NCBI GenBank assembly: GCA_031420655.1
Contig: JANONC010000363.1
Coordinates: 1 to 52,936, forward strand
Direction: 5' to 3'
Origin: Rhodospirillales bacterium
GTDB taxonomy: Bacteria; Pseudomonadota; Alphaproteobacteria; Acetobacterales; Acetobacteraceae
Length of the DNA: 52,936 bases
The notes under the pieces were generated by a model. That model saw only the letters and a program-made list of their open reading frames with translations. It searched no databases and was not told where the DNA came from. The first letter of the stretch is position 1; every line of letters starts with the position of its first letter. Shown in pieces: positions 34,701 through 52,194 of this stretch. Position numbers and translations under genes: made by a program.

Positions 34701-37700
34701 GCGGCGCGTTCTTAAAAGACGTCGTCGACAGCACGTTCAAGTTCGACTCCCTCACGCATGACCGGGTGTATGTGCCAACCGGCAGCGAAAACCTGAACTT
34801 CAACGTCTACATGCCGCTGGCGCTCACGCCCAACCTCAAGATCGTCGTCACGGCCGCGATCGACGATGACGGTACCGTCACGTCAAAGGCGCTCCAGGAC
34901 CTCGCCCGCGACACCAACGCGCCAGACGCGTTGGCCGGCACGGTCATCAAGCAGACATTCGATATTCCTGGATCGTTCTTCCAAGAGTTCAACAAATCCG
35001 TTCACCTGGCCGGGTTCGGTGGGCACCAGGTGCTGTTCACGATCACAGCGTTGAACGCCAATGGCTCAATCGCCGCGCCGAATGCCGTCCTCAACGTGCC
35101 CAACCCGGCCACGATCCTGGGCGAAGGCTTCAGCTCGCTCTTCCTGTTGCAGGACGTGAGCTTTGCCGCCCAGCCCGATGCCAACGAATATGCCACCGCG
35201 ACGACCAAGCAACTCGGCGTCGTGACCGCGACGGGCACGCCCACGGCGGATCTCACGCTCGACGCCGTCACGCGCGTGGCGGCTGAGGCACGCGACAACT
35301 GGGTCACGAGCGGCCTCGTGCCGGACGCGGCGGCCAGGCTCGCCTCCGTGCAGGTCGATGTGGGGCTGCTGACCAACGGACAGATCGGCGGTTACAGCAA
35401 CGGCACTATCACCATCGATGCGTCGGGCTCCGGCGTGGGCTGGTACACCGGTGACGGCAGCGCCTACGCGGCCGGGCCCAACAACACGTTCCTGGCCATC
35501 ACCGGCGGCCCGGCCGCGCAGCACTTCGACCTGCTGACGGTGCTGGAGCACGAATACGGCCACGCCCTCGGCCTCGATGACTTGCCGGACGGCGCGGTGC
35601 CAGGTTCGTTGCTGGCTGTCTCGTTGCACGAGGGCGTGCGGATCCTGCCGACGGCCCGCGACCTGCAGACGGCACCCGCGGCCCCGGTGGCACCCGTCGT
35701 GACCCGTGCTAGCCTGGGCCTTAGCAACCATAACGCAGTCATCACGTCCGGTGTGGCGCTGGACACCCCGGCGCCAATCTATGGCCCGCTCGGCAATGGC
35801 GGCTTCACTATCACGGACCCGGCCGCCGCCGGCTATGCCTGGAACACCACCGGCACCGTTGGCTTCACGGCGGGTCACGCGACACTCACTGAGAACCGGA
35901 CGGTGCTGTCCACCCTCGGCCAGACTTTCCTGCTGGGTGGCACGCAGACGACATTGTCGTTTACCATACAGGGACAGCTGTTCCAGGATGCAGGCCGCCC
36001 GTCCGACTCGTTCGAGGTATCGCTGGACGGCCCGGGTGGCACGCCGGTCATGGGTGCGGCGGGCCTGACCCGTACCGACGATCTGCTGGACATCCAGGCA
36101 GACGGGACTGTGTTTTTGGCGCAGGGCGTGACCGTCAGCGGCCTGCGGGCCGATGGCAAGATCGACCTGTCGGCCGGGCCGCACACGGTGACGATCGAGA
36201 CCAGCACGCTGTCTCGCAATGCGTCGCTTACGCTCGACATCGCGCTCGTGACCTTTGGCACCCACCCGGCTGCGGTGACGGTCGCCAACGTCGGCGGCAC
36301 CAGCATTAGCGGGCCCATTGCGGCCAACGTGACGGCACAGGCCGTGTCCGGCACCCCTGTCAAGATCGACGTGCTGTCGGCCGATGGCGGCACGGGTCTG
36401 TCGCTTACCGCCGTGGGCGCGCCGTCGCACGGCACGGCGTCCATCCAGGACGGGCAGGTGCTGTACACAGCCGCGGCCGGCTACACCGGCGCAGACCAGT
36501 TCGTCTATCGCATCACCGACACTGCGGGGCTTACGGCAACCGGCACTGTGGCTCTCACGGTACGGCAATTGGTCGTACCGCCATCGACGGTGCCGGAAAC
36601 GGCAACGGTGGCGGAAAACGGCTCGGTTCTGATCGACGTGCTGGCGCAAGATAGCGGGACGGGGTTGGTAATCACCGCGCTGTCACCCGCGTTGCATGGT
36701 GCCGTGGCGCTGGCGGATGGCAAGGTCTTGTACACTCCGGCCACGGGCTATTCGGGCGCGGACGCGTTCACCTACACCATCACCGGCGCTGAGGGTGCCA
36801 CGGCGCAGGGCACTGTCACACTCAGCGTTGTGGCCAGCGCGCCGGCGCCGGTCGCCCGGCCCGCGACCGCTACGGTGGCCTCCGGTGCCACGATCGTGCT
36901 GGACGTTTTGGCAGCCGATACCGGCGTGGGTATCGCGCTGACCGCCGTCAGCACCCCCGCGCACGGTACGGCCAGCATCGTCGCGGGCAAGATCAGCTAC
37001 ACCGCCGACACCGCCTATGCGGGAACGGACCAGTTCACCTACACGATTACAGATCAGCTCGGTCAGACAGCCAGCGCCAGCGTCGGCCTGACCTTAATTG
37101 CGGGCGCGGTAATGCCGGTCGCCAAGCCGGCGAGCGGCACGGTTGCTGCGGGCGGCACCATTGTCATCGACGTGCTGGCATTAGATACCGGCACCGGCAT
37201 CACACTCACTGACGTCGGCACGCCGTCGCACGGCACAGCTAGCATCGTGGGTGGTAAGATCAGTTACACCGCCGGGGCAAGCTTCGCCGGGGCGGACCTG
37301 TTCGGCTACACGATCACCGATACGCTTGGCCAGACGGCGACCTCGGTCGTGGGCCTGTCGGTCGTGGCGGGTCCTGTACTGCCGGTTGCCAACCCTGCGA
37401 GTGGCACGGTCGCGTCTGGCGCTACGGTGGTAATCGACGTGCTGGCGCTTGATACAGGTACTGGCATCACACTTACTGACGTCGGCACGCCGTCGCACGG
37501 CACAGCCAGCATCTTGGGTGGTAAGGTCAGCTACACCGCCGGGGCAAGCTTCGCCGGGGCGGACCAGTTCGGCTACACGATCACCGATACGCTTGGCCAA
37601 ACGGCGACCTCGGTCGTGGGCCTGTCGGTCGTGGCGGGTCCTGTCCTGCCGGTTGCCAAGCCGGCGAGCGGCACGGTCGCGTCTGGCGCTACGGTGGTAA

Positions 37701-40700
37701 TAGACGTGCTGGCGCTTGATACAGGCACTGGCATTTCACTTACCGCCCTTGGAACGCCGGTGCACGGCACGGCCAGCATCGTGGGCGGCAAGATCAGCTA
37801 CACCGCAAATGCCGACTACGCCGGGGTAGACCAGCTCAGCTACACCATCACCGACTCGCTCGGGCAGCCCGCTACCTCCATCGCCGCGGTCACGGTCGTG
37901 CCGCCCAGCGATGCCGTGCCGGTCAAACCTACCGTCTTCTCCCCGGCGCTGGTGGTGGCGCAGAACGGGCCTACGACCGCCATCGGCATCGCCTTGCCGG
38001 CTGACCCGGCTTATCCAGCCACGAGCCTGGTCGTCACCATCGGCACCCTGCCCAGCACGGGCGGCGTGAGCCTGCCGGACGGCACGGTCATCACCGCCGG
38101 GCAGGTGCTGACGGCACAGCAACTTGCGGCGTTGCAGTTCACCCCGGCCCCGGACACCGCGGGCGTCAGCTCCACCCTGACCTACACGGTGGCGGACCCG
38201 GCTGGGCGCACCGCCACCGGCACCGCCACGCTCGTGATCGGGCCTGCGCAGGGCCACCCCGTTGCTGGCACCGTGCAGGTCACAGTCGCCATCGCCCCGG
38301 TCCCGCTGGCGATCGCGCCGCCGTTAGACGGCGACTACGCCACCAGCACGCTGCTGATAACCCTGACCGGCTTGCCGACCAGCGGTACGGTGTCGCTGGC
38401 AGACGGAACCGCTGTTGACGTAAGCCAGGTGATGACCGCGGCGCAGCTGGCCGGCCTCGTGTTCAGCGCGACACCCGGCGCGTACGGCTCCAGCTCTGCC
38501 CTTACCTACACCGTGCGGGACCCGGCCGGCGCCCTGGCGGCCGGGGTGGTTGGTATAACGGTACTGGGTGCCACCACGGCACCACCAGTCCTGACGCTGG
38601 CAAGCGGTGCTAGCCAGGCCATTCTGGACGAGGCGACCGCAGTGTTGTCCGGTACCGCAACACCCGGCGCGCTCATTACGCTGTCCGGCGGCCTCGGCTC
38701 CGCCCAGGCAGGGGCAGATGGGTCGTTCATCATCGCCATCCCGCTATCCGATGTGCCGCTGACGGGCTCGCGGCTGTCGATCACCGCGACCGCCGCGTTG
38801 GCCGGGTTCACGCTGTCGCCACCCAGCGCCGCGGTATCGCTGCTCGTGCTCCCGCCACCCGGCGCGGATGGCGTCGTGCTAACGGATGTCAGTTCCATAG
38901 ATATCGCGGACGCACTCCATGCCGGCTACCGCCTGCAGTTCACGGCGGTAACCGAGGCGCTTAACCTCGTTGATGGCGTGCTGAGCGTCGGCGTCGATAC
39001 GCATGAAGCCTTCCTGCAGCGCTTGTATGAGGGCCTGCTGGGCCGGTCATATGAGACGGGCGGCATGGAGGCCTGGGTCGCGGCGCTAGCCTCTGGGCGC
39101 TCACTGGAAGACGTGGCCCAGGGCTTCCTCAACTCGGCCGAATACCAAACCCGTCCGCAGCCCCGGACCGAGCCGGAGTTCATAACCAGCCTGTACCAGG
39201 GCTTCCTCGGGCGGGATCCGGTTGCGCCGGAGCTGTCGTATTGGCTGGAGGTGGGCAACCGTGGCCTCAGCCATGCCCAGATCGTCGCCTCATTCGGTAC
39301 GCAGCCAGAGGCCAAGATCCACTTGGCCGCGACCACGGCCCGCGTTTTCGCCCGCAGCGAGACCGCCACCGCCGTGCACGACATTTACAAAACCGCGCTG
39401 GGGCGAGAGGCGGAGCTGGGTGGCTTGGCCACGTGGACCGGTGTCGCCGGGCAGGGTGGCCTGCAAGCGGTCGCGGCTCTCTTCCTGCTGGAGCCAGAAG
39501 CGGCCGGCCTGCATGCGCGGCAGAGTAACGCGGATTACGTTCGTTCCCTGTACCTCGCTGGCCTCGGACGGGCGGCTAGCGACGCGGAGGTCTCGTATGG
39601 TGCCGGGCAGCTCGATGCCGGACTGTCGCGGGGCGCATTCCTACAGGGTGTCGCTTTGTCGCCGGAAGCGAGGGCGCACCTAACCTCGGATGATTTCAAC
39701 TCGCTGGCGCCAATCTTTGCGCTGCCTGTGGCTGCGGTCGCAGCCACTACTGTGCCGTCCATCACGCAGCCTGCCGCACGCCCCGCGCTGTTGGCGACGG
39801 CCCCGGCTACCGCGCTGGTAAACACGCAGGCTGTCGTCTCCCTTTCGGGCGGCGGGCGTGTCATGGGATGGACGGTGCTGTGGGGTGACGGCAGCGCGGC
39901 CATGACGGTCGCGGGTGACGTGGCGGAGGCGCAGCACAGCTACACCGCACCCGGCACATACGCGGTGCAGGCGGTCGGACGCGCGGCAGACGGCGTGTTC
40001 GCGGCCAACCCGCTCGCCATCGCGGCCACTGGCACGACATTTGTCCCTGCAGGCGTCGTGGCGGAACAGACCGGCTTTAATGCCCGGTTTAACCAGGCGC
40101 TGACCATCAGCAGCCTCACCTTGCTGGCGGATGCGTCCGGTACCGCACCGTCCGTTCTTGTCACTGGGCCAGGCGGCGGCACGATCGACGGTTCCGTCGT
40201 GGCGGACGCGGATGGCGCGGGCTTCCACTTCGTGGCTGCGGCCGGCGCGCTAGCACCCGGTGCCTACAGCGTCGTGGTGCGCAGCGCGGTGCTGGACGCG
40301 CGGGGCGAGGCATTGGACGGTGCGGCCGTGGGCGCGGCAGGCAATGACGAGCGGTTCAGCGTCACTGTCCCGGCCGGGGATGCGGTGACGATGCCATCGT
40401 TCATGCGGGGACCGGGCCAGGCCGTCAGTGTACCGGTTGCGGACAGCGCGCTGCCGGTATCGTTCACCAGCGGGGGGGAGGCGACGCGCCTGGTGTTCAC
40501 CACCACCGCCGATCCGGCTTTACTGGCCATCACCGGGGCCACGGCGGGCGCGGGATTGCCGGCGGGCAGCACCGTCGCCTTCGACACACAGCTCGTCGGC
40601 GGCCAAGCCCGCGCCACGATCACCGTCACGTCACCCACCCCTATTCCCGCTGGGACGGTGCCGTTGGTTCTGCTGCAAGCGGCGGTGCCGGCCAGTGCGC

Positions 40701-41513: not shown

Positions 41514-41789
41514 ATGAGCGATGACCCTGCCGCCGCGCAGCAGAAGCTGCGGTTTGACACGACCGGTATCAAAAGCAGCTACTGCAACGTCTGCAACGCG
41601 ACCAGCACCCGCGAAGAGGTTGTGCTGAATTTCGGGCTTAATAAGACGTGGGACGTGGCCGGTGCCGACCTGCAAGTGCAGTTGGAACACCGCATCATTT
41701 TAAGTCCATTTGCCGCCAAACGCCTGCAGCAACTGCTGACACAACTGATGACGGAGCATGAGGCGCGGTACGGACAACTAAACCAGTAA
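41514..41789 (+). CDS. DUF3467-like small protein (91 aa)
   Basis: Internal ATG of ORF 41397..41789, with a strong SD. The sequence MSDDPAAAQQKLRFDTTGIKSSYCNVCNATSTREEVVLNFGLN...HRIILSPFAAKRLQQLLTQLMTEHEARYG resembles the DUF3467 family pattern (Y.N......s..E.vL.Fg, then a C-terminal helix). The assignment is from memory. Confidence 0.75.
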   Translation: MSDDPAAAQQKLRFDTTGIKSSYCNVCNATSTREEVVLNFGLNKTWDVAGADLQVQLEHRIILSPFAAKRLQQLLTQLMTEHEARYGQLNQ

Positions 41790-41802: not shown

Positions 41803-43638
41803 ATGGATAACACGAGGCTGGAAACCGGCATCAAAACCGCAGATCTGTGGGCGGAGTTTGCGGTTGCTGATGGGATGGACGCGCTGTGCCGGTCCTGGTT
41901 ATCGCTTTATTGCCGGAACCTCACGCACCTGTCCCGGGCGATGCTCGTTGTTTCCCGCCCCGGCGGACCGTTCCAGCCGCTGGCCGTGTGGCCCTCGTCA
42001 CTGACGGACCTGACCGGGTTACAGGGTGTAGTAGAACGCTGCATCCGCACTGGCGAGCCGGAAGTGGAACCGCAGGAGACCGGCGCGGGCACGCACGTGG
42101 CGTACCCATTCCTGGCAGACGGTCAGGTCGTGGCCGGCGCTGTCGTGCTGGATTTGGGCCCGGGCGCGGCCACCGGCCTGGCGCAGCTCTTGCGCGACCT
42201 GCACTGGGGCATGGGCTGGCTGGAAGCGCAGTCCGTCCGTGACCGTATGGCCCGCGAGCACCTACGCACCGCGAACCTATCCGCCGCTTTGGATCTAGTC
42301 GCGCTGGCCAACGAGCATGACCGCGCGGATGGCATGGCGATCGCGATTGCCAACGAACTGGCAGCCCGGCTCGGCGCGTCCCGCGTGGCGATCGGGCTGA
42401 GTGGGCCCAAGGGTGCTCGGCTACTCGCGCTGTCGCACACGGCCTGGTTCAAGCGCAACACTGCCCTGGCCCTTAGCCTGTGTTCGGCGATGGACGAGGC
42501 CATCGACCAGCGCGCCCCGGTCCGGCTACCGCCCGCCGCCGGGGAGCCGGTCCGCATTCAAGTGGCGCATGAGGCATTGCGAGGGTCGCTTTCGGGCGAT
42601 GGCGCGATCCTAACCGTGCCGATGCTGACGGAGCATGGGCCGGTGGGGGCCATCACCGTGCTGCATCCCGGCACACTGACCGTGGCGCAAGCGCGGCTGG
42701 TGGAGGCGGTTGCAGCCCTGCTCGGCCCCGGGGTGCACGCCAAGCAACGGGCGCGCCGCTGGCTATCCGGACGGTTGGTGGACGGAGCCGCGGGTGCCGC
42801 CGCCGCCCTCGCTGGCCCGCGGCATTTGGCGTGGAAATTCGTTGGTATTTCGGCGCTGGTGTCCGTCACGGCGTCGCTGATCGTACCCATGCCGTTCCGG
42901 GTTTCGGCCAAAGCGGTGCTGGAAGGGGAGATACAGCGCGTCGTGGCGGCCCCGTTCGAGGGCTTTATTGCCACCGCCCCGGCCCATGCGGGTGACGTGG
43001 TGGCGGAAGGCACCGTTCTCGCCACGTTGGACGACAATGACCTTCGACTAGACGCCGTAAAGTGGCAATCCGAGCATGACCGGCTGACGCTCAAGCTACG
43101 GGAGGCGTTAGCCAAGCATGACCCGGCCAGCGCCGGGCAGCTGGACGCGCAGTTGCGCCAGACGCAGGCGCAGGCCCGGCTGACGGCGGCCAAGCTCGCG
43201 CGGTCGGTCATTACCGCGCCGATGGCGGGTGTGGTCGTGTCGGGCGATCTATCGCACTCGATTGGCGCGCCGGTCGAAACGGGTAAGGTGCTGTTTGAGG
43301 TCGCACCACTCGACCGCTACCGCGTCGTGGTGCGGGTGGATGAACGCGACCTGCGGTTCGTGCAGCCCGGGCAGGGCGGCACGATGCTGCTGTATGGCCT
43401 GACCAGCGCGGCGCTGCCGTTCGTGGTGCAGCGCGTCACCCCGGTCGCGCAGGTCGATGGCGGGCGCAATACCTTTCGGATCGAAGGCGCATTGGCGGAC
43501 GGCGCGGCGCTCGATAGCCTGCGGCCCGGTATGGAGGGGATCGGTAAGATTGAAATCGGCGAGCGGTCCGTGGCCGCCGTGTGGACGCGCAGCCTGGTGG
43601 ACTGGGTGCGCAACACCGCCTGGGCCTGGACCCCCTGA
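41803..43638 (+). CDS. GAF-GAF-TM-HlyD family periplasmic adaptor (membrane fusion protein)
   Basis: 611-aa ORF starting 13 nt after the previous stop. There are two GAF-like segments (about aa 10-150 and 165-325) and one hydrophobic helix (WKFVGISALVSVTASLIVPMPF). The C-terminal HlyD pattern reads VAAPFEGFIATAPAHAGDVVAEGTVLATLDD...coiled coil...ITAPMAGVVVS...GKVLFEVAPLDRYRVVVRVDERDL. Confidence 0.85.
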   Translation: MDNTRLETGIKTADLWAEFAVADGMDALCRSWLSLYCRNLTHLSRAMLVVSRPGGPFQPLAVWPSSLTDLTGLQGVVERCIRTGEPEVEPQETGAGTHVAYPFLADGQVVAGAVVLDLGPGAATGLAQLLRDLHWGMGWLEAQSVRDRMAREHLRTANLSAALDLVALANEHDRADGMAIAIANELAARLGASRVAIGLSGPKGARLLALSHTAWFKRNTALALSLCSAMDEAIDQRAPVRLPPAAGEPVRIQVAHEALRGSLSGDGAILTVPMLTEHGPVGAITVLHPGTLTVAQARLVEAVAALLGPGVHAKQRARRWLSGRLVDGAAGAAAALAGPRHLAWKFVGISALVSVTASLIVPMPFRVSAKAVLEGEIQRVVAAPFEGFIATAPAHAGDVVAEGTVLATLDDNDLRLDAVKWQSEHDRLTLKLREALAKHDPASAGQLDAQLRQTQAQARLTAAKLARSVITAPMAGVVVSGDLSHSIGAPVETGKVLFEVAPLDRYRVVVRVDERDLRFVQPGQGGTMLLYGLTSAALPFVVQRVTPVAQVDGGRNTFRIEGALADGAALDSLRPGMEGIGKIEIGERSVAAVWTRSLVDWVRNTAWAWTP

Positions 43639-43640
43639 TC

Positions 43641-45791
43641 GTGACGGAAACGTTCTTCGCCCAGAACTGGTACCGGGTCGCAGCGCTGCGGCCGCGCTTG
43701 GCTGCGCATGTTGTGGTCGAGCGGCACCGCTATGGCGGGCTACCCTGGTACGTGTTGCTGGACCGGCTATCGGGCCGGGTGCACCGCATGTCGCCTGCCT
43801 CGTTCCTGTTCGCCGTGCGCCTCGATGGCGTCCGTACGGTGGACGAGGTGTGGCAACAAACGGCGGCCGAACTGGACGATGACGCGCCGGGGCAACCGGC
43901 CGTGCTGCAGATACTCATGCAGTTACACGCAGCCGATTTGCTGTCCGGTGATATGCCGCCCGATGCGGCGGAACTGCTGTCGCGGCGCGACCGGATGGGC
44001 CGGCAGCTGCTGACGCGCAACCTGCGCTCGCCCATGTCGATACAGGTGCCGCTGTTTGACCCCGACCGGTTTCTGAGCGGGACGCTGCGTGTGGTGCAGC
44101 CGCTGCTGGGCCCGGTGGGCGGCGTGCTGTGGCTGCTGCTGGTCGTGGCTGGGGCGGTGACGGCGGGACAGCATTGGGACGAGCTGACGGGCAATCTGCT
44201 GGACCGGCTGCTGGGCACTCAGGGCCTGCTGGCTATGGCGCTCTGCTACCCGGTCCTGAAAATATTGCATGAACTCGGCCATGGCTGGATGGCCAAGCGC
44301 TTCGGCTGCGAAGTGCGGGAGATGGGCGTCATGCTGCTCGTGATGATCCCGGTGCCGTATGTGGACGCCAGCGCGTCGGCGGCGCTACGCAATAAATGGC
44401 AGCGGGCCGCGGTGGCGTTCGCAGGCATCGCGGTCGAACTCGGCCTGGCCGCCGCCGCAACGCTGGTGTGGGCCGCGGCCGAGCCGGGCTTGCTGCGCGC
44501 GGTGGCATTCAACGTCATGGTCATCGGCAGTCTCTCGACCCTCGTGGTCAACGGCAATCCGTTGCTGCGCTTTGATGGCTATTACGTGCTGTCAGACGTG
44601 CTGGAGGTTCCAAACCTTGCCCAGCGCGGCAGCCAGTTCTGGGGCTATGTGCTGAACCGCTTTGTCCTAGGTGTGCCGAACCTGCGGCCTTCTTCCGCAA
44701 CCATGCGGGAGCGGTTCATATTTGCGCTCTATACCCCGGCGGCCCTGGCCTATCGCCTATCGGTTTCCGCCGGGATCGCACTCTATGTCGCCACACATTA
44801 CTTTATTTTGGGCGTGGCGCTGGCGGTGGTCATGCTAGCGACGACTGTCGCGTGGCCCGTGCTGCGGACAATAGGGCGGATCGTGGCGTCGCCGCTTTAT
44901 GCACGCTGCCGTGCCCGCGCGACTGGGCTGACGTTTGCCGGGATCGCCGCGGTGGTGCTGCCGCTAGCGCTGGTGCCGGCCCCCCTGCACAGTACCGGGG
45001 ACGGCGTCGTGTGGCTGCCGCGGGAGGCGTTCGTGCGCGCTGGGGCGGACGGGTTCGTGCAGTCCGTCACCGCAGCAGGCGCGCAAGTGCCGGCGGGTGC
45101 CCTGCTGGTCGCGTTGGCCTATCCCTTGGCGGACGCGCGGCTGGAGGTCGAGCGGGCGCGGGTGGACGAGCTGCGCGCGAAGTACGAGACGGAGTGGGTG
45201 ACGGATCGGATCGCCGCTGCAGTTACAGGGTTCGAGCTGTCGCAGCAGGAGGCCGTCTTGAACCGCGAGCAGCAGCGGCAAGCGCGCATGACGGTCACGG
45301 CTGGCACGAGCGGCGCATTCAGTCCCATCCGGCCCACCGGCGATCTGGAAGGGCGATTCGTTAAAGAGGGAGAGGTGCTGGGCTACGTCGTCCCACCCGG
45401 CGGCGAGCTGGTCCGGGTACTCGTGCCGCAGGTGGATATCGCACTGATGCAGGAGCGGCTCGTGCGGGTCAGCATCTTGTTGCCCGATAGCCGGACCACC
45501 GTCGCCTCCAGCGTTCTGCGCGCCGTGCCCGGCGGCGATAGCGACCTGCCGAGCGAGGCGCTGGCGGCCAGCAATGGCGGCTCCATCGTGACCGACCCGC
45601 GGGATACAAAGACGATGCGCGCCTTTGAGCGGCATTTCCAGTTCGACTTGTCCCTCCCCGCGACAGCCGCGGTGCGCGCCGCCGGACTTGGGTCGAAGGT
45701 GTTGGTCCGCTTCGATTATGCGTGGGAGCCGGTGGCAAGCATGGTGTATCGCCGAGTGCGCCAGGGATTGCTTGGCCGTTTTAACACGTGA
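43641..45791 (+). CDS. PqqD-like / S2P (peptidase M50-like) / HlyD-like fusion membrane protein
   Basis: ORF 43581..45791. GTG 43641 lies 2 nt after the upstream stop, and TETFFAQNWYRVAALRPRL looks like the family N-terminus (ATG 43581 is the alternative). The PqqD-like segment is YVLLDRLSGRVHRMSPASFLFAVRLDGVRTVDEVWQQTAAEL. HELGH is at 44268-44282. The second S2P motif is NGNPLLRFDGYYVLSD (about 44549-44590). There are several hydrophobic helices. The C-terminus carries a lipoyl/coiled-coil/barrel HlyD-like part (ARLEVERARVDELRAKYE...RFVKEGEVLGYVVP). Confidence 0.85.
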   Translation: MTETFFAQNWYRVAALRPRLAAHVVVERHRYGGLPWYVLLDRLSGRVHRMSPASFLFAVRLDGVRTVDEVWQQTAAELDDDAPGQPAVLQILMQLHAADLLSGDMPPDAAELLSRRDRMGRQLLTRNLRSPMSIQVPLFDPDRFLSGTLRVVQPLLGPVGGVLWLLLVVAGAVTAGQHWDELTGNLLDRLLGTQGLLAMALCYPVLKILHELGHGWMAKRFGCEVREMGVMLLVMIPVPYVDASASAALRNKWQRAAVAFAGIAVELGLAAAATLVWAAAEPGLLRAVAFNVMVIGSLSTLVVNGNPLLRFDGYYVLSDVLEVPNLAQRGSQFWGYVLNRFVLGVPNLRPSSATMRERFIFALYTPAALAYRLSVSAGIALYVATHYFILGVALAVVMLATTVAWPVLRTIGRIVASPLYARCRARATGLTFAGIAAVVLPLALVPAPLHSTGDGVVWLPREAFVRAGADGFVQSVTAAGAQVPAGALLVALAYPLADARLEVERARVDELRAKYETEWVTDRIAAAVTGFELSQQEAVLNREQQRQARMTVTAGTSGAFSPIRPTGDLEGRFVKEGEVLGYVVPPGGELVRVLVPQVDIALMQERLVRVSILLPDSRTTVASSVLRAVPGGDSDLPSEALAASNGGSIVTDPRDTKTMRAFERHFQFDLSLPATAAVRAAGLGSKVLVRFDYAWEPVASMVYRRVRQGLLGRFNT

Positions 45792-45809: not shown

Positions 45810-47792
45810 CTACTCTGTACCGGTGAAGCCCATTCCGCGGTCGGTTTCCTCGTCCTGCTGCATTTGCTGGCGGCGCTGCTGGGCGTTCATGCGGCTTGCG
45901 GTGCGCTGCGCATGATGGCGCAACAGGGCCAGGCCGCCGGGCAGCTTTCCGGCGGAAGCAGCAAGGCGGGGTGCGAAGCGGTGGAACAGTTCGTCATCCC
46001 GGGCCACGATGCTTTCGCACGATCCCGGGTCGCCCTGGCGTCCGGCGCGGCCGAACAGCTGGCGGTCGATGCGGCCGCTATCGTGATAACCGGTCAGGAT
46101 GACATGCAGCCCGCCCGCGGCCGCCACGCCGGGGCCGAGCGTAATATCCGTCCCGCGGCCAGCCATGTTGGTCGCGACCGTGATCCGGCCTGCCTGACCG
46201 GCGGCGGCCACGATAGTCGCCTCATTCACGTCTTGCCGGGCGTTCAGTACGACATGCGGTAGCCCACGCTCTGCCAGCACTGCGGAGAGCGACTCCGATG
46301 CCTCGACCGACTGGGTACCGGCTAGCACGGGTTGACCTGCGCACGAGACCTGCGCCACCCGCGCTGCGACCGCCTGCCATTTCGCCGCAGCATCGGGCAG
46401 CAACATCCCTCCCAGATTGCGGCGCTGCACCGGGCGATGGGTGGGCATGTGGACGGTACGCAGCCCATAGACGCCCTGCAACTCCCCCGCGACCTCCCGC
46501 GCCGTGCCAGACATGCCGCTCAGATGCAGATAGCGGTTGAAAAAGCGCTGGTAGGTGATGCGGGCCAGGGTCACACGCCGCCCAGTGAGGGTCACGCCCT
46601 CTTTCGCCTCCACCATCTGGTGCAATCCTTCTTCCCAGCTGCGGTCCGGCATGACACGCCCGGTATATTCATCGACGATCTGAACCGACCCATCGGCGAC
46701 GATGTAGTGCCGGTCGCGGGCGAACAGATGCAGCGCGGTCAGCGCCTGGGCGATCAGCGTTTCCCGCGCAGGGCGGATGCGGAACAGGCCGAGCATATTC
46801 TGGCCGAGCAGCGCTACCTTCTCCTGCCCCCGGGTGGTCAACCGCACGACGTCCGCCGCGGCGTCTATCAGGAAGTCGTCGCCCAGCGCCAGCCGCCGCC
46901 CGATCTCGAGCGCCCGTCCGGCAATCTCCTCCGCGCCTTGGTCGGGCCGGTCGGCGGAGATGATGAGCGGCGTGCGAGCCTCGTCGATCAGCACGCTGTC
47001 GGCCTCATCGACGATCGCCGCATGCAGGCCGCGCAGGACCAGCCCGCCTGCGCCGGACGTACCGACAAGCGACGCAACGGCCTGCCGCGCCTGGCCCTTG
47101 CCGCCGGTCGTCGCGATTCGGTCCTTCAGGTAGTCGAACACCAGTTCCTTGTTGGAAACATAGACGATATCGGCGGCGTAAGCCTGGTGGCGCAACGCCG
47201 GCTCATCTCCTTCGACGACAACGCCCACCGTCAATCCCAGCGCCTCACAGACAGGACGCAACCGCTCCGCATCGCGGCTGGCGAGGTAGTCGTTTACCGT
47301 CACGACGTGGACGGGCTTGCCGGCCAGGGCGAGGTAGATGGCGGGCAGCAGCGCGGTGATGGTCTTGCCCTCACCGGTCGCCATTTCGACAATGCGGCGG
47401 CTGGTGAGGGCACGTCCGCCGAGCAGCTGGACCGGGTAGTAGCGCAGGCCGAGGTGGCGCTCGACGGCGGTTGCCACCAGGCCGAACACCTGCGTGCGCC
47501 GGGCGCCGGGGTCTTTCAGCAGCGCCGTGCGCAGCGCCGCCGCACTGGCCAGCAGCGCGGGTCCGCTGTGGCCGCTGACAGACGCAGCCTCCCGCGCAAC
47601 GTCAAGGGCAAATTCGGCTGCGCCTGTCAGCCGTCCGGTAAGCGCCGCCCGCCACTGGCCGACCATGGTCGCTACGCGGCGGTCGAACGCATTGCCCGGT
47701 CGTATAAAGCGCTCGGCATAGGGGGCCACGGCATAGCGACGCATGATATTTTCTTGCCACGCCGCAGGACGAAGGTCTAGCAGATACGTCAT
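45810..47792 (-). CDS. truncated SecA-like ATPase paralog (DEAD motor plus preprotein cross-linking region only)
   Basis: YYPVQLLGGRALTSRRIVEMATGEGKTITA (Walker A codons at 47361-47384), HVVTVNDYLASRD, IVDEADSVLIDEARTPLIIS, VATNMAGRGTDI, GRAGRQGDPGS. The protein ends about 60 aa after the last motif. An alternative start is ATG 47744 (MRRYAVAPYAER). Confidence 0.85.
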   Translation of the reverse strand: MTYLLDLRPAAWQENIMRRYAVAPYAERFIRPGNAFDRRVATMVGQWRAALTGRLTGAAEFALDVAREAASVSGHSGPALLASAAALRTALLKDPGARRTQVFGLVATAVERHLGLRYYPVQLLGGRALTSRRIVEMATGEGKTITALLPAIYLALAGKPVHVVTVNDYLASRDAERLRPVCEALGLTVGVVVEGDEPALRHQAYAADIVYVSNKELVFDYLKDRIATTGGKGQARQAVASLVGTSGAGGLVLRGLHAAIVDEADSVLIDEARTPLIISADRPDQGAEEIAGRALEIGRRLALGDDFLIDAAADVVRLTTRGQEKVALLGQNMLGLFRIRPARETLIAQALTALHLFARDRHYIVADGSVQIVDEYTGRVMPDRSWEEGLHQMVEAKEGVTLTGRRVTLARITYQRFFNRYLHLSGMSGTAREVAGELQGVYGLRTVHMPTHRPVQRRNLGGMLLPDAAAKWQAVAARVAQVSCAGQPVLAGTQSVEASESLSAVLAERGLPHVVLNARQDVNEATIVAAAGQAGRITVATNMAGRGTDITLGPGVAAAGGLHVILTGYHDSGRIDRQLFGRAGRQGDPGSCESIVARDDELFHRFAPRLAASAGKLPGGLALLRHHAQRTASRMNAQQRRQQMQQDEETDRGMGFTGTE

Positions 47793-48588
47793 GATCTACC
47801 GCAGTCTTGGTATAATTGTACTGCTCGCTGGGCCTGCTCATGCGGGGGAGTACGCCTGCTTGATCGAGCCGAAGCAGGTGCTGAAGCTCGCTGCACCCGT
47901 GCAGGGCGTAGTGGCCGCCGTAGAGGTTGATCGCGGGGACCGGGTACGGAAGGGCCAGGTGCTGGCGCGGCTGGATTCCGATGTGGAGGAGGCTAACGCG
48001 CTGATCGCCCAAGTGCGTGCGGCCAATGACACCGCGATCCGGTCCGGGCGCGCCCGGCTCGATTTCCTGCGCCGCAAACAGTCGCGCAACGATCAGCTCC
48101 GAACGACCGACGCGGTTAGTTTTGCCCAAGCGGACGAAGCAGCGTCTGACGCGCGCGTGGCCGAAGCGCAGTTGCGGGAGGCGGAGCTGAACGTAGCGCA
48201 GGCGCGTCTGGAGGCGAAGCGGTCCGAGGGATTACTGCAGCAGCGCCGGGTGGTAAGCCCGATCGATGGCGTGGTCACGGAGCGCTCGCTGGGGCCGGGC
48301 GAGTTTCGCAACGACCAAGCGACCATTCTGACGATTGCCGAGATTAATCCACTACGGGTTGAAACCTTTTTGCCGATCGCGGTGTACGGCCAGGTCAAGG
48401 TTGGGGACAAAGCGGTGGTGGTGCCCGAAGCGCCAGTGGGCGGCAGCTACGCCGCGACGGTCACGGTCGTGAATGCCGTGTTCGACGCGGCCAGCGGCAC
48501 GATCGGGGTGCGGCTGGAGCTACCAAACCCCGACCTGCTGTTGCCAGCGGGTATACATTGTCGGGTCCGTTTTTCGGCGGTGCCCTGA
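47791..48588 (+). CDS. small periplasmic adaptor (HlyD/RND-MFP family) with signal peptide
   Basis: MIYRSLGIIVLLAGPAHA/GEY signal. Then KLAAPVQGVVAAVEVDRGDRVRKGQVLARLD, a coiled coil, VVSPIDGVVTERSLGPGE and PLRVETFLP. The longest ORF starts at 47743. Confidence 0.8.
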   Translation: MIYRSLGIIVLLAGPAHAGEYACLIEPKQVLKLAAPVQGVVAAVEVDRGDRVRKGQVLARLDSDVEEANALIAQVRAANDTAIRSGRARLDFLRRKQSRNDQLRTTDAVSFAQADEAASDARVAEAQLREAELNVAQARLEAKRSEGLLQQRRVVSPIDGVVTERSLGPGEFRNDQATILTIAEINPLRVETFLPIAVYGQVKVGDKAVVVPEAPVGGSYAATVTVVNAVFDAASGTIGVRLELPNPDLLLPAGIHCRVRFSAVP

Positions 48589-48603
48589 AGCGCGAAAGGC
48601 GCT
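48589..48603 (+). terminator. weak hairpin immediately after the adaptor gene stop
   Basis: AGCGC-GAAAG-GCGCT, a 5-bp stem with no following U-tract. Confidence 0.2.
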
Positions 48604-48875
48604 ACTTCGCCAAAGGCGATCGAAGAACGCCGTCAACTCGTCAAATATCTCTTTCGATTCCGTGGTATTGAAGCCTAATTACAACGATTAGCCGGTTGCG
48701 TGCCGCGTGCGTTCCCTTGGGTGGAACAGTGCATCAACGCAAGGCGGGGTTGTCGAGAACCTTTCCGGGGCACCTGGCCGCGAGCGCGCCGACGTGAACG
48801 GGGTCCAAGATGCTGGAGTGGTCGCAACGCCGAAGCATCCGGCGAAGATGATATCCGGGGGCATCCGGCAGGGTC

Positions 48876-49112
48876 TCAGAACCACACGACCCGCACTATC
48901 GCGAACCCTCGCCGCAAGCACGCCGAGCAAGCGAAAACCTTCTCGAGGTCTAGGACCCCGTAGTCGGGACCTCGCTGCGCCAGCACGGGTATCACACGGA
49001 CATTGCGCTCCGTTTGGCAGGTGCCGCAGCGGACCACCAACACCGCCTTGGGGTAAACCAAATCGCGTAGGCCCAGGCTGTAAAATGGGATTACCCGGTT
49101 GCTGCCGGCCAT
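48876..49112 (-). CDS. hypothetical small zinc-ribbon-like protein (78 aa)
   Basis: These are the last 78 codons of the long minus ORF 48876..50474, from ATG 49110-49112. The sequence MAGSNRVIPFYSLGLRDLVYPKAVLVVRCGTCQTERN...LEKVFACSACLRRG has two CxxC pairs. It resembles small proteins often found beside mobile elements in alphaproteobacteria (from memory). Confidence 0.35.
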   Translation of the reverse strand: MAGSNRVIPFYSLGLRDLVYPKAVLVVRCGTCQTERNVRVIPVLAQRGPDYGVLDLEKVFACSACLRRGFAIVRVVWF

Positions 49113-49268
49113 GGCCAATCGTAGTTCGGAGCACAACAAGAACACTGGGTCATGGCCACCTTCCGTCGTACCTGCCCAGCCTTCGTCGGCCGACCGCGCT
49201 TCTTGGGTGGCTCCTACTTGGATTACGGCTCCGGCGCGGCCGCGGCTTTCCTGGCCGGCCACCTGTCG

Positions 49269-50430
49269 ATGTCGAAACCCCTGCCGCAAGGGGTCACCTA
49301 CCTCGGCACTATGCGTTGTCGCACCCGCAAGCTCGTAGACGGCAAGCGGCTGGACAAGACCTTCCCAACCGCGCGGCTGGCGCGCGAGTGGCTGGAGTCT
49401 GCTTCCGTCGCGGTCCGGGCCGGAAAGTTCGTCGACTCCAGGCCGCTGGACAGGATGACCGTCGGCCCGATGGTGGATCGCTTCGCCGAGGAGACGATGC
49501 AGGAGGGCGGCCCGCGGCGCGGCTACAAGCAGGACATAGGACATGTTCTTGCTCTGAAGACCGACGAGATTGCGCTCCTGCCGCGATCGAAGCTGACCCC
49601 TTTCGCTGTCCGCAATTTCCGCGTGAGCCAGCTTGAGGCGGGTTTCGCGAAGGCGACCGTGGTCAAACGCATGAACTTGCTTGCCTGAGTGTTGAAGCAC
49701 GCCACGAGCGAGTAGGGCCTGCCGCTGGTCAAAAACGTGGCGTCTGGGAAGCTCGTCAGCCGTCCAAATGGGGGCCGACCAGAAGCGCAAATGGCGTCTC
49801 CGCGTTCCGGGCGTGGCAGCCCAGCGGGTGGCGGAAAGCCGGGGCGAGGGGTGCATTCCCCACCGAAGAAAAGGTCCTCTACGAACTCGATGGAGAAGTC
49901 CGATAACATATTGAACCTGCACATGGTGCGGTTCGCGATGGCGTAGAGCACCCGTCTCGGGGAGCAGTTGGGGATGCGCTGGCGGCATGTCGATTTCGAG
50001 GCTCGTTCCCTCACTCTCGTCGGTAGGTTTGGACGATGGCACGAAGAACGAGGACCACCGCGAGGAACTGGGGCTCGAGGTCCGGGCGCTTGTGCCCCGT
50101 TCGATCGAGACCCTTCGGGAGATTAAACCGGAGAACGTGGATCCCAGCGCCCACGTTTCCCGGCGGGCGGATATAACGCCTTCAAAACCAGGATCGGACG
50201 GCCACTTCGGACGGCTGCCGGGAGGATGACAGGCACCATGAAGGAGCTTCACTACTAGGACGACCTCCGCTGCCATGACCTGAGGCACGAGGCGACGAGT
50301 CGGCTCGCAAAGGTGTTCACGGACAGCAAGATGCTCATGAGCGTGATCGGCCACATGGACCACAAGTCCATGCTTCGATATTACCAGCCAGATCCGAACA
50401 AGCTGGCCATGATCGCTGAGGAACACGGGC
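49269..50430 (+). pseudogene. tyrosine recombinase / phage-type integrase, multiply disrupted
   Basis: N-terminus: MSKPLPQGVTYLG...DRFAEETM...TVVKRMNLLA. Then in-frame TGA 49686-49688, TAG 49713-49715 and TAG 49944-49946. RLGEQLGMRWRHVDFEARSLTLVG is followed by a frame change near 50030 (TKNEDHREELG...VPRSIETLREIK) and TAG 50256-50258. The catalytic end is LRCHDLRHEATSRL...VIGHMDHKSMLRYY. Confidence 0.8.
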
Positions 50431-50464
50431 GCGCGCGCGGCCGGGATAGAGGTGGAGCCGGGCG

Positions 50465-50593
50465 CGCACCACATAGGCTCTCGGTTTCCGGCGCCATCCG
50501 GCGTTCGGCGGCAAAGCCGATCATCTCGCGCAGGAATGTGGAAACGGAACCCTTTTCCAGCACGTCGCGAAGGGCGATCTTGTCATTGGTCAA
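50465..50593 (-). pseudogene. IS256-family transposase N-terminal remnant
   Basis: The minus-strand translation LTNDKIALRDVLEKGSVSTFLREMIGFAAERRMAPETESLCGA resembles the conserved N-terminus NLRALVEK.PDADLLREMIGFAAQRLMELEVEGLTGA of alphaproteobacterial IS256-family transposases (from memory). Similarity stops abruptly. Confidence 0.55.
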
Positions 50594-50818
50594 CCCGGTG
50601 GCGATCCTTGAGTTCAGGATGTGTCTCGACAACCCAACCCTTGTTCAACACGGCCGCAGTGACCACCGCCTTGGACAGGTCACCCGCCTACGTCAGACTA
50701 GCGGCGGGCGCTTCGGCGGGCGACTTATCCACCGCTGGTACAGCACGTCAGGGGCACAACCCCACGTGGCCAGGTGTGTTCCATGGCAAGGCTGGGTCCA
50801 CCCAGGGGGGCCGAAGCG

Positions 50819-51082
50819 CTACTTGAGCTGGCTATCTTTGCTACCCCGGCGGTTGAACCCGGTGTTCGCCGGGCGACGATCCCGCGCCGACTGGCAGGCG
50901 ATGCAGGTCCGGACGCCGGGCAGCACCCGGCGGCGCGCTTCTGGGATCGTGTCGCCGCATTCAAGGCAAATGGGATCGGCATCACCCGTGGGGATGCTGG
51001 CGCGCGCTCTGAGAACGCCATCCATGACGGTGTCGTCGATCTGATCCTGCACCGCCCCGTCCGGCGCCCACCCGCTTGCCAT
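50819..51082 (-). CDS. TraR/DksA family C4-type zinc-finger protein
   Basis: ICLECGDTIPEARRRVLPGVRTCIACQSARD is the classic CxxC-N17-CxxC TraR/DksA finger. An AGGGG SD-like sequence lies upstream. Confidence 0.8.
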   Translation of the reverse strand: MASGWAPDGAVQDQIDDTVMDGVLRARASIPTGDADPICLECGDTIPEARRRVLPGVRTCIACQSARDRRPANTGFNRRGSKDSQLK

Positions 51083-51186
51083 GATCGACCCCTGCTATCT
51101 CTCTTTTCTGGGAGAGATGTCGGAATGAGCCCTGGTGGTTCCAAGGCTCAAACCGCTGCGCTGGACCGGGTGCCCCAGCTCCTCGC

Positions 51187-52194
51187 CTACTTCAAAAGCG
51201 TCGAAGTCAGGAACGCCATCACGTCTGCCCGTGCGGCCTCGGTCGCTTGCGCGTTGTGGCCGACATGCGCGCCGATCGCGACGCAAGGCGCGGTCTTGAG
51301 TAGGTAGGGCTGTCCCGTGTCCGCATCGACCAAGGTGCCGCCTGGTCCCTCCTTCAACCGGCAGTTGCGTGTGCTCTGCGCTTTCGGCACCGCAAGCAGC
51401 GGCGGCGAGGTCGGGCTGTCGAAGCCGTGCTGGCTGTCTGCGTACTCGGTCAGCGCGATGTCCACCCCGGCCGGCTTCAGGCGCGACACCAGGGTCCGGC
51501 ACGCCGCCGGGTTCACGTAGTCGTCGCTGCTGCCGTGATACAGCCGGATCGGTACCCCGCCCATCGCATCGTCCTTGTCGTAGGCGATGTTGCAGGGCGT
51601 ATAGAACCCGACATGAGCGGCAAACCGGTTCTGGCTGCCGAAGCCCGTGCGGAATCGCTCGACCGCCGCATAGACTGCCGGCACGGCACCCTTGGAGAAG
51701 CCCCAGACGGCGATGCGGTCCGGTCGGATGCGCGGGTGCGCCGCCAACACGTCGAGCGCCCGGAAGGCGTCCACCGTCATCGACAGCGAGTTGAGCTGAT
51801 CCTGGTCCTCGACCGTCGAGACGATGCCGCGGCCGGAGAAGCTATCGAGGATGAAGGCAGCGATCCCGGCCTCGTTCAGGATATGCGCCCACATGTCCGG
51901 GCCGGCGCCGATCCCGCCCGACCCATGGATTAGGATCACCGCCGGGACCCGGCCGCCCGCGCCGACCGGCAGGCGTAACTCGCCGCCCAGCAGCACCTCG
52001 GGTCCTGCCTTTTCGCCGCGCAAGAACGCATCCAATGGCAATGTTTGCGAGCGCACCGGCAGGATCTCGATCCGGCCCGGCCAGCTGCTGCCCTGGGCAT
52101 GGGCCGTGACAGGCGCGGTAAGCGCTCCGAGGGCTATGAGGCCCGCGATGGCGATCGTCGTCAGGCCGACGCGCCGCTGTACAAAATTGTGCAT
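51187..52194 (-). CDS. secreted dienelactone-hydrolase-family alpha/beta hydrolase
   Basis: The signal peptide is MHNFVQRRVGLTTIAIAGLIALGALTAPVTAHA. Other motifs: VILIHGSGG, nucleophile elbow VWGFSKGA, YHGSSDDYV and SQHGFD. A strong SD precedes the start. Confidence 0.85.
   Translation of the reverse strand: MHNFVQRRVGLTTIAIAGLIALGALTAPVTAHAQGSSWPGRIEILPVRSQTLPLDAFLRGEKAGPEVLLGGELRLPVGAGGRVPAVILIHGSGGIGAGPDMWAHILNEAGIAAFILDSFSGRGIVSTVEDQDQLNSLSMTVDAFRALDVLAAHPRIRPDRIAVWGFSKGAVPAVYAAVERFRTGFGSQNRFAAHVGFYTPCNIAYDKDDAMGGVPIRLYHGSSDDYVNPAACRTLVSRLKPAGVDIALTEYADSQHGFDSPTSPPLLAVPKAQSTRNCRLKEGPGGTLVDADTGQPYLLKTAPCVAIGAHVGHNAQATEAARADVMAFLTSTLLK

Follow-up and report, generated by a model that had tools for sequence, protein, structure and literature searches.

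A PqqD-like, M50 protease, and HlyD-like fusion protein in a conserved five-gene cassette beside a giant LEPR-XLL gene: a candidate export system

INTRODUCTION

The closest described relative of the locus reported here is a gene module that Kamneva, Poudel, and Ward identified by comparative genomics in 2015 (PLoS One, PMC4452313); it comprises a GAF-HlyD protein, an M50-HlyD protein, a secondary SecA_DEAD protein, and a short HlyD protein. In the sections of that paper on which we draw, a type-I-like mode of secretion is proposed in which SecA_DEAD would be the ATPase and the M50 protein might form the pore; the biological role is called "completely unknown," the similarity to Peptidase_M50 is called "rather weak," and the module is reported also from Planctomycetes, Verrucomicrobia, and Chlorobi (one member). 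Here we describe a stretch of 52,936 nt from a Rhodospirillales bacterium (assembly GCA_031420655.1, positions 1 to 52,936 of contig JANONC010000363.1), referred to throughout as the window, which holds the full 2015 module plus a DUF3467 gene directly 3′ of a gene for a 13,261-residue protein. The analysis centers on the M50 component, a protein of 716 residues (43641 to 45791, forward strand) in which a PqqD-like domain, an M50 or site-2 protease (S2P) core, and a HlyD-like adaptor domain follow one another.

A literature search returned no publication that combines PqqD, M50, and HlyD. The pairing of SecA_DEAD with HlyD appeared only in PMC4452313, and no later work on the module was found; DUF3467 came up only in an unrelated context, and LEPR-XLL (or LEPRxLL), a motif near the N terminus of the giant protein, only in two genome descriptions and a 2026 preprint. 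Neither a Chem Rev review of type I secretion systems (T1SS) nor a polymorphic-toxin paper treats the module. Since the module is in the 2015 paper, the 716-residue protein is a typical member of a family that is known bioinformatically and is functionally unstudied.

To our knowledge, the export of proteins of more than 10,000 residues without Sec or RTX signals is largely unexplained. The reading that we favor, with moderate confidence, is that the 716-residue protein would be the leader-recognizing, leader-cleaving, and periplasm-bridging subunit of a type-I-like exporter for LEPR-XLL giants, with the 13,261-residue protein as its cargo in the window.

RESULTS

The M50 core is intact and conserved throughout the family

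Two tightly packed genes on the forward strand (41803 to 43638, then 43581/43641 to 45791) lie 3′ of the 39.8-kb giant open reading frame (ORF). The second ORF spans 43581 to 45791, and the likely start of the 716-residue protein is the GTG at 43641, which lies 2 nt past the stop codon of the upstream gene and is aligned with the N termini of homologues. An earlier note, made from the DNA sequence alone, had described the product as three proteins in one: a PqqD-like segment, an S2P core, and a C-terminal HlyD-like adaptor. Profile and fold searches support all three assignments at the level of the family, although the PqqD and HlyD_3 scores of the 716-residue protein alone are under the cutoff.

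HExxH together with NxxPxxxxDG is the hallmark of site-2 proteases, the Asp of the second motif being the third zinc ligand. Both motifs are present, HELGH at residues 210 to 214 (44268 to 44282, exactly where the earlier note had it) and NGNPLLRFDG at residues 304 to 313 (44550 to 44579). The protein scores 35.9 bits against Pfam Peptidase_M50 (PF02163), above the cutoff of 27.2, and M50 was matched by all 41 homologues of the family alignment (45 to 72% identical), in which H210, E211, H214, N304, P307, and D312 are invariant. Both HExxH and NxxPxxxxD are kept in 264 of 264 full-length relatives, 23 of which have Ala or Ser in place of the Gly that follows the Asp. Conservation of the catalytic motifs is thus far beyond chance. 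The family profile gave a weak match (E = 0.06) to MjS2P (3b4r). In terms of its sequence the protein has an M50 protease core with intact catalytic motifs, and it is predicted to be proteolytically active.

An AlphaFold2 model built on the family alignment (mean predicted local distance difference test score [pLDDT], 85.9; predicted template modeling score, 0.65) bears out the multiple hydrophobic helices that had been noted: its helices fit seven transmembrane (TM) segments, N-in/C-out, between residues 158 and 444 (44112 to 44972, forward strand), a region that includes the M50 core. HELGH sits in a predicted helix (residues 193 to 220), and a β-hairpin (residues 228 to 241) separates this helix from the next, as in site-2 proteases. 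Lys and Arg cluster in the loops on the same side as the N-terminal PqqD-like domain. Given the seven TM segments and this clustering, the simplest topology is N-in/C-out, in which the PqqD-like domain would be cytoplasmic, the active site near the cytoplasmic face, and the adaptor domain periplasmic.

The M50 core is flanked by PqqD-like and adaptor-like domains

Residues 18 to 102 (43692 to 43946, forward strand) form the PqqD-like domain, predicted to be cytoplasmic; the segment that the earlier note quoted as PqqD-like lies at the place given there. The 716-residue protein itself scores 21.4 bits against PF05402 (PqqD), just below the cutoff of 23.4. Matches at E ≤ 0.01 were obtained for 39 of the 41 family members, the best at 8e-8, and the family profile matched residues 18 to 102 to the sequence of the PqqD crystal structure 3g2b with E = 2e-5. 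The secondary structure of the AlphaFold2 model (strands at 24 to 31, 34 to 41, and 46 to 50; helices at 52 to 60, 67 to 81, and 85 to 97; pLDDT of 79 to 90 over the block) predicts the β3-α3 topology of PqqD and of the RRE (RiPP recognition element, where RiPP stands for ribosomally synthesized and posttranslationally modified peptide), a three-stranded sheet followed by three helices. The domain is strongly constrained in the family alignment, with many invariant residues. Its assignment is new relative to the 2015 description of the module: a term search of PMC4452313 gave zero mentions of PqqD.

The best NCBIfam match was daptide_HExxH (NF041824), a family of leader peptidases with a PqqD-like domain and M50, which aligned with residues 18 to 404 at E = 2e-42 and 145.7 bits; the YydH/LiaK model gave a weak match. 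The equivalog cutoff of NF041824 is 300, well above this score, and membership of the daptide protease equivalog was rejected because the score is under it. No daptide-type genes were found near the gene, either among the window genes or in the gene tables of contigs from other genomes. From the sub-cutoff score and the lack of a daptide gene context, we take the 716-residue protein to be a relative, not a member, of NF041824.

The C-terminal domain, residues 445 to 716 (44973 to 45788, forward strand), begins directly after TM7 (residues 424 to 444) and is predicted to be periplasmic. Against Pfam HlyD_3 (PF13437) the protein scores 20.2 bits, below the cutoff of 22.2; 36 of the 41 relatives match at E ≤ 0.01, and the family profile matched HlyD (8dck; E = 0.0045) and MexA (E = 0.006). 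In the AlphaFold2 model the domain has a lipoyl-like unit, an α-hairpin (residues 495 to 548, with coiled-coil helices at 495 to 521 and 523 to 548), and a β-barrel, the coiled coil and barrel lying where the earlier note had placed them. A Foldseek search of the model against the PDB returned MacA, MexA, AcrA, TMexC, ZneB, and CusB (E = 7e-10 to 1e-7; about 270 to 295 alignment columns), with MacA (3fpp; E = 7e-10) as the top adaptor; the matches to MacA, MexA, AcrA, and TMexC have E = 7e-10 to 1e-8 over about 280 to 295 columns. Since the profile score is under the curated HlyD_3 threshold, the label is given on structural grounds: in the model, the domain is an adaptor-like domain and not a curated HlyD family member. 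The doubt raised by the weak PqqD and HlyD_3 scores is eased, at the level of the family, by the family-wide matches together with the profile hits.

The fusion is widespread and nearly constant in length

In a protein collection clustered at 90% identity, 4,462 of the 8,000 candidates scored were relatives at E ≤ 1e-5; the 120 listed are almost all 709 to 750 residues long and are covered over 96 to 100%. An exhaustive profile search of 1.84 billion representatives at 50% identity gave 5,884 clusters at E ≤ 1e-30, and among the best 150 of these nearly all are full length, at about 700 to 740 residues. Scanning GTDB with a single genome for each species added at least 544 matching stretches. 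The taxa among the matches listed are Alpha-, Beta-, Gamma-, and Deltaproteobacteria, Nitrospirota, Myxococcota, Rokubacteria, Methylomirabilia, Acidobacteriota, and one metagenome-assembled genome of Flavobacteriales. The PqqD-M50-HlyD fusion is a very common, length-invariant family of around 715 residues that spans many phyla. The earlier note had called such a fusion unusual for either family; this holds relative to characterized S2Ps and adaptors but not for the databases, and the combination of M50 with HlyD was reported in 2015. Relatives are annotated as "putative peptide zinc metalloprotease protein" (JGI) or "PqqD family peptide modification chaperone" (NCBI), labels that misname the genes.

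The 716-residue protein is one subunit of a five-gene cassette

We compared the window proteins by BLASTP with six-frame ORFs from 80 loci out of the at least 544 stretches. Where a locus extends far enough, the homologue of the 716-residue protein has, in essentially all cases, a GAF-HlyD gene as its immediate upstream neighbor and a SecA-like gene as its immediate downstream neighbor; a short HlyD adaptor was found in about 50 of the 80 loci. About 35 of them have DUF3467, which lies between the giant gene and the GAF-HlyD gene. Five long contigs, compared by their gene tables, have the same cassette order. The partners of the 716-residue protein in this five-gene cassette include a truncated SecA-like ATPase and two more adaptors, and the protein, as a single subunit, cannot be interpreted alone.

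Reading from the giant gene, the other components in the window are a small DUF3467 protein of 91 residues (41514 to 41789, forward strand; Pfam DUF3467, 63 bits); a 611-residue protein (41803 to 43638, forward strand; Pfam GAF, HlyD_3, and HlyD_D23, NCBIfam RND_mfp) in which a GAF domain and a HlyD-type adaptor are accompanied by exactly one TM helix, at about residues 346 to 364; the SecA-like ATPase, 660 residues without a TM helix (45810 to 47792, reverse strand; Pfam SecA_DEAD, 294 bits, SecA_PP_bind, and P-loop_SecA); and a short HlyD/RND-type adaptor of about 265 residues with an N-terminal signal peptide (47791 to 48588, forward strand, with the start at 47743 or 47791), which scores 129.9 bits against NCBIfam RND_mfp (cutoff, 94.9) and also matches Pfam HlyD_D23, HlyD_3, and Biotin_lipoyl_2. 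The three adaptors are distantly related (pairwise BLAST E = 3e-7 to 0.6).

SecA engages SecY through its helical scaffold with the two-helix finger, its wing, and its C-terminal tail. The SecA-like protein of the cassette aligns to SecA residues ~51 to 551 only (E = 3e-120); it keeps the first nucleotide-binding domain (NBD1), the preprotein cross-linking domain, and NBD2, and it has no helical scaffold, including the two-helix finger, no wing, and no C-terminal tail. Without the parts that engage SecY, the usual docking to SecY would not be possible. Across the window and the 80 loci, the M50 protein is the only polytopic membrane protein of the cassette. Pfam and NCBIfam scans of the window recognized no gene for an outer membrane factor (OEP/TolC); OEP genes are reported in some module loci in the part of PMC4452313 that we cite.

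These partners bear on a reading in which the 716-residue protein is a signaling protease of regulated intramembrane proteolysis, similar to RseP or SpoIVFB, whose HlyD-like domain would sense the envelope and control expression of the giant gene. Such a role would suit the S2P catalytic core and the adjacent GAF "sensor" protein, for which regulation is suggested in the same part of PMC4452313. We regard it as very unlikely: the 80 loci have in common no gene for a sigma factor, an anti-sigma factor, or a transcription factor tethered to the membrane, what they do conserve is an ATPase with a preprotein-binding domain and adaptors (three adaptors in all), and the protein has no PDZ or CBS domain, its adaptor fold carrying the α-hairpin of the TolC type.

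In the window and in its closest Acetobacteraceae-like relatives (loci L003/L004 and L206), the SecA-like gene runs opposite to the other cassette genes; in most other loci it shares their strand. A single CATG at 47790 to 47793 contains both the ATG of the SecA-like gene and the likely ATG of the short adaptor. An inversion switch for the SecA-like gene was considered and rejected, there being no flanking inverted repeats, and a scan for sigma-70 promoters and terminators between 41.3 and 48.8 kb found nothing above the shuffled expectation.

The DUF3467 protein is highly conserved in the cassette, with invariant K-S-x-Y-C-N-V-x-N-A-x-S-T-R-E-E and P-x-A-A-x-R-L. An AlphaFold2 model of the monomer with 31 homologues had a pLDDT of 55, a low confidence and too low for a fold search; the protein may require a partner or an oligomeric state. 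A role as a SecB-like export chaperone is not supported, a profile search against PDB sequences having returned no relevant match and an hhalign comparison with Escherichia coli SecB having given a probability of 0.3%. In two Nitrospira-type loci, L047 and L065, the SecA-like gene is followed by a tandem pair of short-adaptor genes, and L047 also has two DUF3467 copies, which suggests lineage-specific duplication of accessory subunits. In Pseudooceanicola batsensis (L001/L002, 7486 to 8097) DUF3467 is separated from the GAF-adaptor gene by an extra gene for 203 residues without a Pfam match, a possible cassette component specific to that lineage.

The cassette is associated with giant proteins that begin with a LEPR-XLL leader

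The presumed cargo is encoded at 1703 to 41488 on the forward strand, an adhesin-like multidomain protein with matches to Laminin_G_3, CARDB, He_PIG, Big_9, Cadherin_5, and DUF4214. Its N terminus reads MTHIRALFGRRRVNGLRDKLSKCTAVSGLMHFEALEPRVLLSADLLP...; the leader covers residues 1 to 46 (1703 to 1840, forward strand), with LEPRVLLSAD at 1805 to 1834. NCBIfam LEPR-XLL (NF012209), an N-terminal domain of about 24 residues bearing LEPRxLL, matches residues 31 to 49 with 34 bits (cutoff, 17). The N terminus has no hydrophobic signal-peptide core, and no RTX repeats were found in the protein by Pfam.

From the cassette side, large neighbors are a regular feature. In other genomes the cassette comes after genes for proteins of 12,228, 14,929, 6,118, 12,770, and 13,524 residues, and about half of the 80 loci have an upstream ORF on the same strand that exceeds 1,500 residues and is still open past the 10-kb flank. 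The LEPR-XLL motif begins every neighboring large gene with a visible start (loci L015, L033, L059, L069, L074, L075, and L078).

From the cargo side, metagenome contigs were scanned with a degenerate DNA pattern for E-x-L-E-P-R-x-L-L-S-A-D, which gave at least 120 contigs. The motif lies 13 to 159 codons (median, 52) past the preceding stop codon in all of them, and is thus N-terminal; 90 of these ORFs are open past the contig end, at lengths of up to 4,684 residues. Upstream DNA of at least 2.5 kb is available in 53 of the contigs, and 14 of these have cassette genes there (at least 100 bits), the upstream component being SecA-like, M50, or GAF in 12 of the 14. Since a cassette 3′ of the giant gene, as in the window, is invisible from the 5′ end, 14 of 53 is a lower bound; reasoned from about one five-gene cassette per genome and not from a matched background control, it should be far above the expectation for a random gene. 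The association of the cassette with LEPR-XLL holds both ways, from the cassette and from the motif. It is an addition to the 2015 module: in the part of PMC4452313 used here, no DUF3467, cargo, or LEPR-XLL leader was found. The earlier note had proposed that the protein acts on the neighboring giant; the link is strengthened by the LEPR-XLL leader of that protein and by the cassettes beside independently found LEPR-XLL genes, and the processing itself we infer.

The leaders share a design, 20 to 30 Arg/Lys-rich residues followed by (K/R)-phi-x-phi-E-x-LEPR-x-LLSAD, for a whole leader of 30 to 60 residues. They are basic (median net charge, +6), and only 1 of 104 contains a hydrophobic 12-mer of signal-peptide strength. 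A hidden Markov model of the leader, built from the pattern-selected sequences, was too narrow to detect divergent leaders in the genome loci.

The same association bears on a reading in which the cassette matures or exports a small RiPP-like peptide, in the manner of daptides or epipeptides, and the giant genes are incidental. The daptide_HExxH match, the weak match to YydH/LiaK, and the peptide-related names given to relatives by NCBI and JGI all point that way. Against this, the score is far under the daptide cutoff, the loci conserve neither modification enzymes nor genes for short precursors, and the LEPR-XLL association holds in both directions; we consider this reading the most improbable of those weighed here.

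Composition of the giant gene and flanking DNA

Ala, Thr, Gly, Leu, and Val are the dominant residues of the giant protein, which has few Met (65), Lys (200), and Glu (237) and a single Cys. The sole strong DNA tandem repeat in its gene consists of 3.4 copies of 267 nt (36946 to 37854), so the gene owes its length to diverged domains and not to recent repeats. Within it, the GC content drops to 0.615 and the AT skew rises to 0.16 (32 to 34 kb), and the GC skew reaches −0.086 (34 to 36 kb), so that 32 to 36 kb departs in composition from the remainder of the gene.

Positions 1 to 600 of the window hold the 3′ part of an ORF in frame 3 for an IS5-like DDE transposase (...RWVVERFFAWINRNRRLAKD...), the family having been assigned by eye. 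An ORF of low GC content (about 0.43, compared with 0.66 elsewhere) follows at 605 to 1342; it encodes 245 residues with an apparent signal peptide and no Pfam match. The partial transposase ORF and the low-GC ORF suggest that the DNA directly upstream of the giant gene is foreign. On the other side of the cassette, the region from 48600 to 51150 has long ORFs on both strands (e.g., 48876 to 50474, reverse strand, 532 residues); none of the ORFs there has a Pfam or NCBIfam match, the third-position GC is not clearly raised, and the region may be degraded or noncoding DNA. A dienelactone-hydrolase-like gene occupies 51187 to 52194 on the reverse strand.

DISCUSSION

If the 716-residue protein serves as a leader peptidase and bridge of an exporter, as we favor, the following sequence of events can be envisaged. 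A cargo without a Sec-type signal would enter by way of its basic leader, which is itself observed and ends in the (K/R)-phi-x-phi-E-x-LEPR-x-LLSAD motif. The cytoplasmic PqqD/RRE-like domain would bind the leader as an added β-strand, as RRE domains bind RiPP leaders; the RRE fold and the alternating hydrophobic pattern of the leader motif suggest strand addition. The M50 site near the cytoplasmic face would then remove the leader, in the way of the RRE-M50 peptidases of daptides and epipeptides and of the C39 domain of bacteriocin ATP-binding cassette (ABC) exporters. The SecA-like ATPase may push the unfolded chain N to C through a passage that oligomerized seven-TM domains would form together with the TM helix anchoring the GAF-adaptor. 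To judge from fold and family, the MacA/MexA-like domain and the two paralogous adaptors would build a periplasmic tunnel to a TolC-type channel encoded elsewhere. With the signal at the N terminus, export could even start, as a speculation, during translation of the 40-kb mRNA.

Several points weigh against this scheme. For leader binding and cleavage, for the position of the cut, and for export, we reason from sequence and predicted structure. The weakest points are two: the putative leader cleavage and the path across the inner membrane, the cassette having no gene for a SecY-like or ABC inner membrane channel. In the window, the inverted SecA-like gene leaves almost no intergenic room for promoters. 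About three-quarters of the LEPR-XLL starts with enough upstream DNA have no cassette there; in such cases it may be located 3′ of the LEPR-XLL gene or at another site. Of the genes of the module in Methylobacterium extorquens AM1, only the GAF gene is expressed in exponential phase, according to the part of PMC4452313 that deals with expression. A study of Chlorochromatium places LEPRxLL giants of 36,806 and 20,647 residues in a classical T1SS, and some LEPR-XLL proteins also bear C-terminal RTX regions (PMC10868602).

The last of these points bears also on a different reading, in which the cassette does export giants and the M50 protein is mainly a scaffold or pore. Its protease would then clear stalled cargo, release the product, or process a subunit such as the GAF-adaptor, and LEPR-XLL would be read by the SecA-like protein, GAF, or DUF3467, or would serve in retention or anchoring after export, in the manner of the N-terminal retention modules of RTX adhesins. 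The M50 protein as the missing pore was already proposed by Kamneva et al. in the passages of PMC4452313 cited above, and the cassette has no other polytopic membrane protein. Canonical S2Ps cut TM segments, and the GAF-adaptor has exactly one; given the C-terminal RTX regions, the export signal may be C-terminal. Even so, we think this account unlikely, albeit the most serious competitor: the profile closest to residues 18 to 404 describes RiPP leader peptidases that likewise combine a PqqD-like domain with M50, the PqqD-like domain is strongly constrained and has leader binding as its one role in known systems, and the giant of the window lacks RTX repeats by Pfam.

Building on the leader-peptidase reading, a broader proposal, possible though held only tentatively, is that the cassette represents a distinct, widespread, and experimentally unstudied class of secretion across two membranes. 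In such a class, an RRE would read and an M50 protease clip the nonhydrophobic LEPR-XLL leader, a SecA motor free of SecY docking would drive N-to-C, possibly cotranslational, export of proteins whose lengths range from 5,000 to more than 30,000 residues, and three adaptors would form a tunnel to TolC. This would provide a route out of the cell for the largest known bacterial proteins, perhaps including, as a lead only, the two LEPRxLL giants of Chlorobium chlorochromatii. The Chlorochromatium study found a "recently acquired" secA, Cag_1676, to be coexpressed with these giants; that Cag_1676 and the one Chlorobi module of Kamneva et al. are the same organism and gene is likewise no more than a lead. 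With a defined tag in LEPR-XLL and a defined machine, a 10-year-old module of unknown role would become a directly testable secretion pathway. It would also be the first case in which an RRE, a domain known from small-peptide natural products, reads a giant protein's leader, and it would include a SecA-derived motor that operates without SecY and a site-2 protease incorporated into an adaptor that spans the periplasm.

Compared with the Kamneva module (e.g., META1p2402-2399 of M. extorquens AM1), as set out in the part of the paper cited, the cassette shares all four genes and their order, the secretion proposal is likewise the same, and the phyla overlap; the present analysis adds to that description the invariant catalytic motifs, the PqqD/RRE domain, and the cargo link. 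RRE-M50 leader peptidases of RiPP pathways (NF041824 and the EpeP/YydH-type NF058609) have the same layout, an N-terminal PqqD-like domain and then M50, and differ in having neither an adaptor domain nor a SecA-like partner, and in acting on substrates of tens of residues rather than more than 10,000; the M50 protein EpeP is considered to export its peptide as well as to cleave it (PMC10885120).

Bacteriocin and RTX T1SS (C39 ABC exporter, HlyD, and TolC) follow the logic proposed here, in which a protease borne by the exporter removes the leader and a cytoplasmic ATPase works with HlyD adaptors that reach the outer membrane, and profile and Foldseek matches indicate that the adaptor fold is common to T1SS HlyD and the window protein. 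In contrast to T1SS, the cassette has a SecA-derived ATPase in place of an ABC protein, a zinc M50 protease in place of cysteine C39, protease and adaptor in one polypeptide, three different adaptors, and a leader motif that is not of the double-glycine type. With RseP, SpoIVFB, and MjS2P the 716-residue protein shares HExxH in a TM helix, NxxPxxxxDG after another, and a β-hairpin between; unlike them it has no PDZ or CBS domain and carries an added RRE and adaptor, its presumed substrate is a soluble leader rather than a TM segment, and no partner site-1 protease is evident. Finally, the SecA2/SecY2 systems of Gram-positive bacteria, which handle very large serine-rich adhesins, have, as in the window, a dedicated SecA paralogue beside a very large adhesin-like cargo. 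SecA2 profiles match the SecA-like protein of the window with E = 1e-108 to 1e-144, all under their cutoffs; relative to SecA2, this protein is cut after NBD2, and its cassette has neither SecY2 nor Asp proteins, is found in diderm hosts, and pairs the motor with adaptors and an M50 protein.

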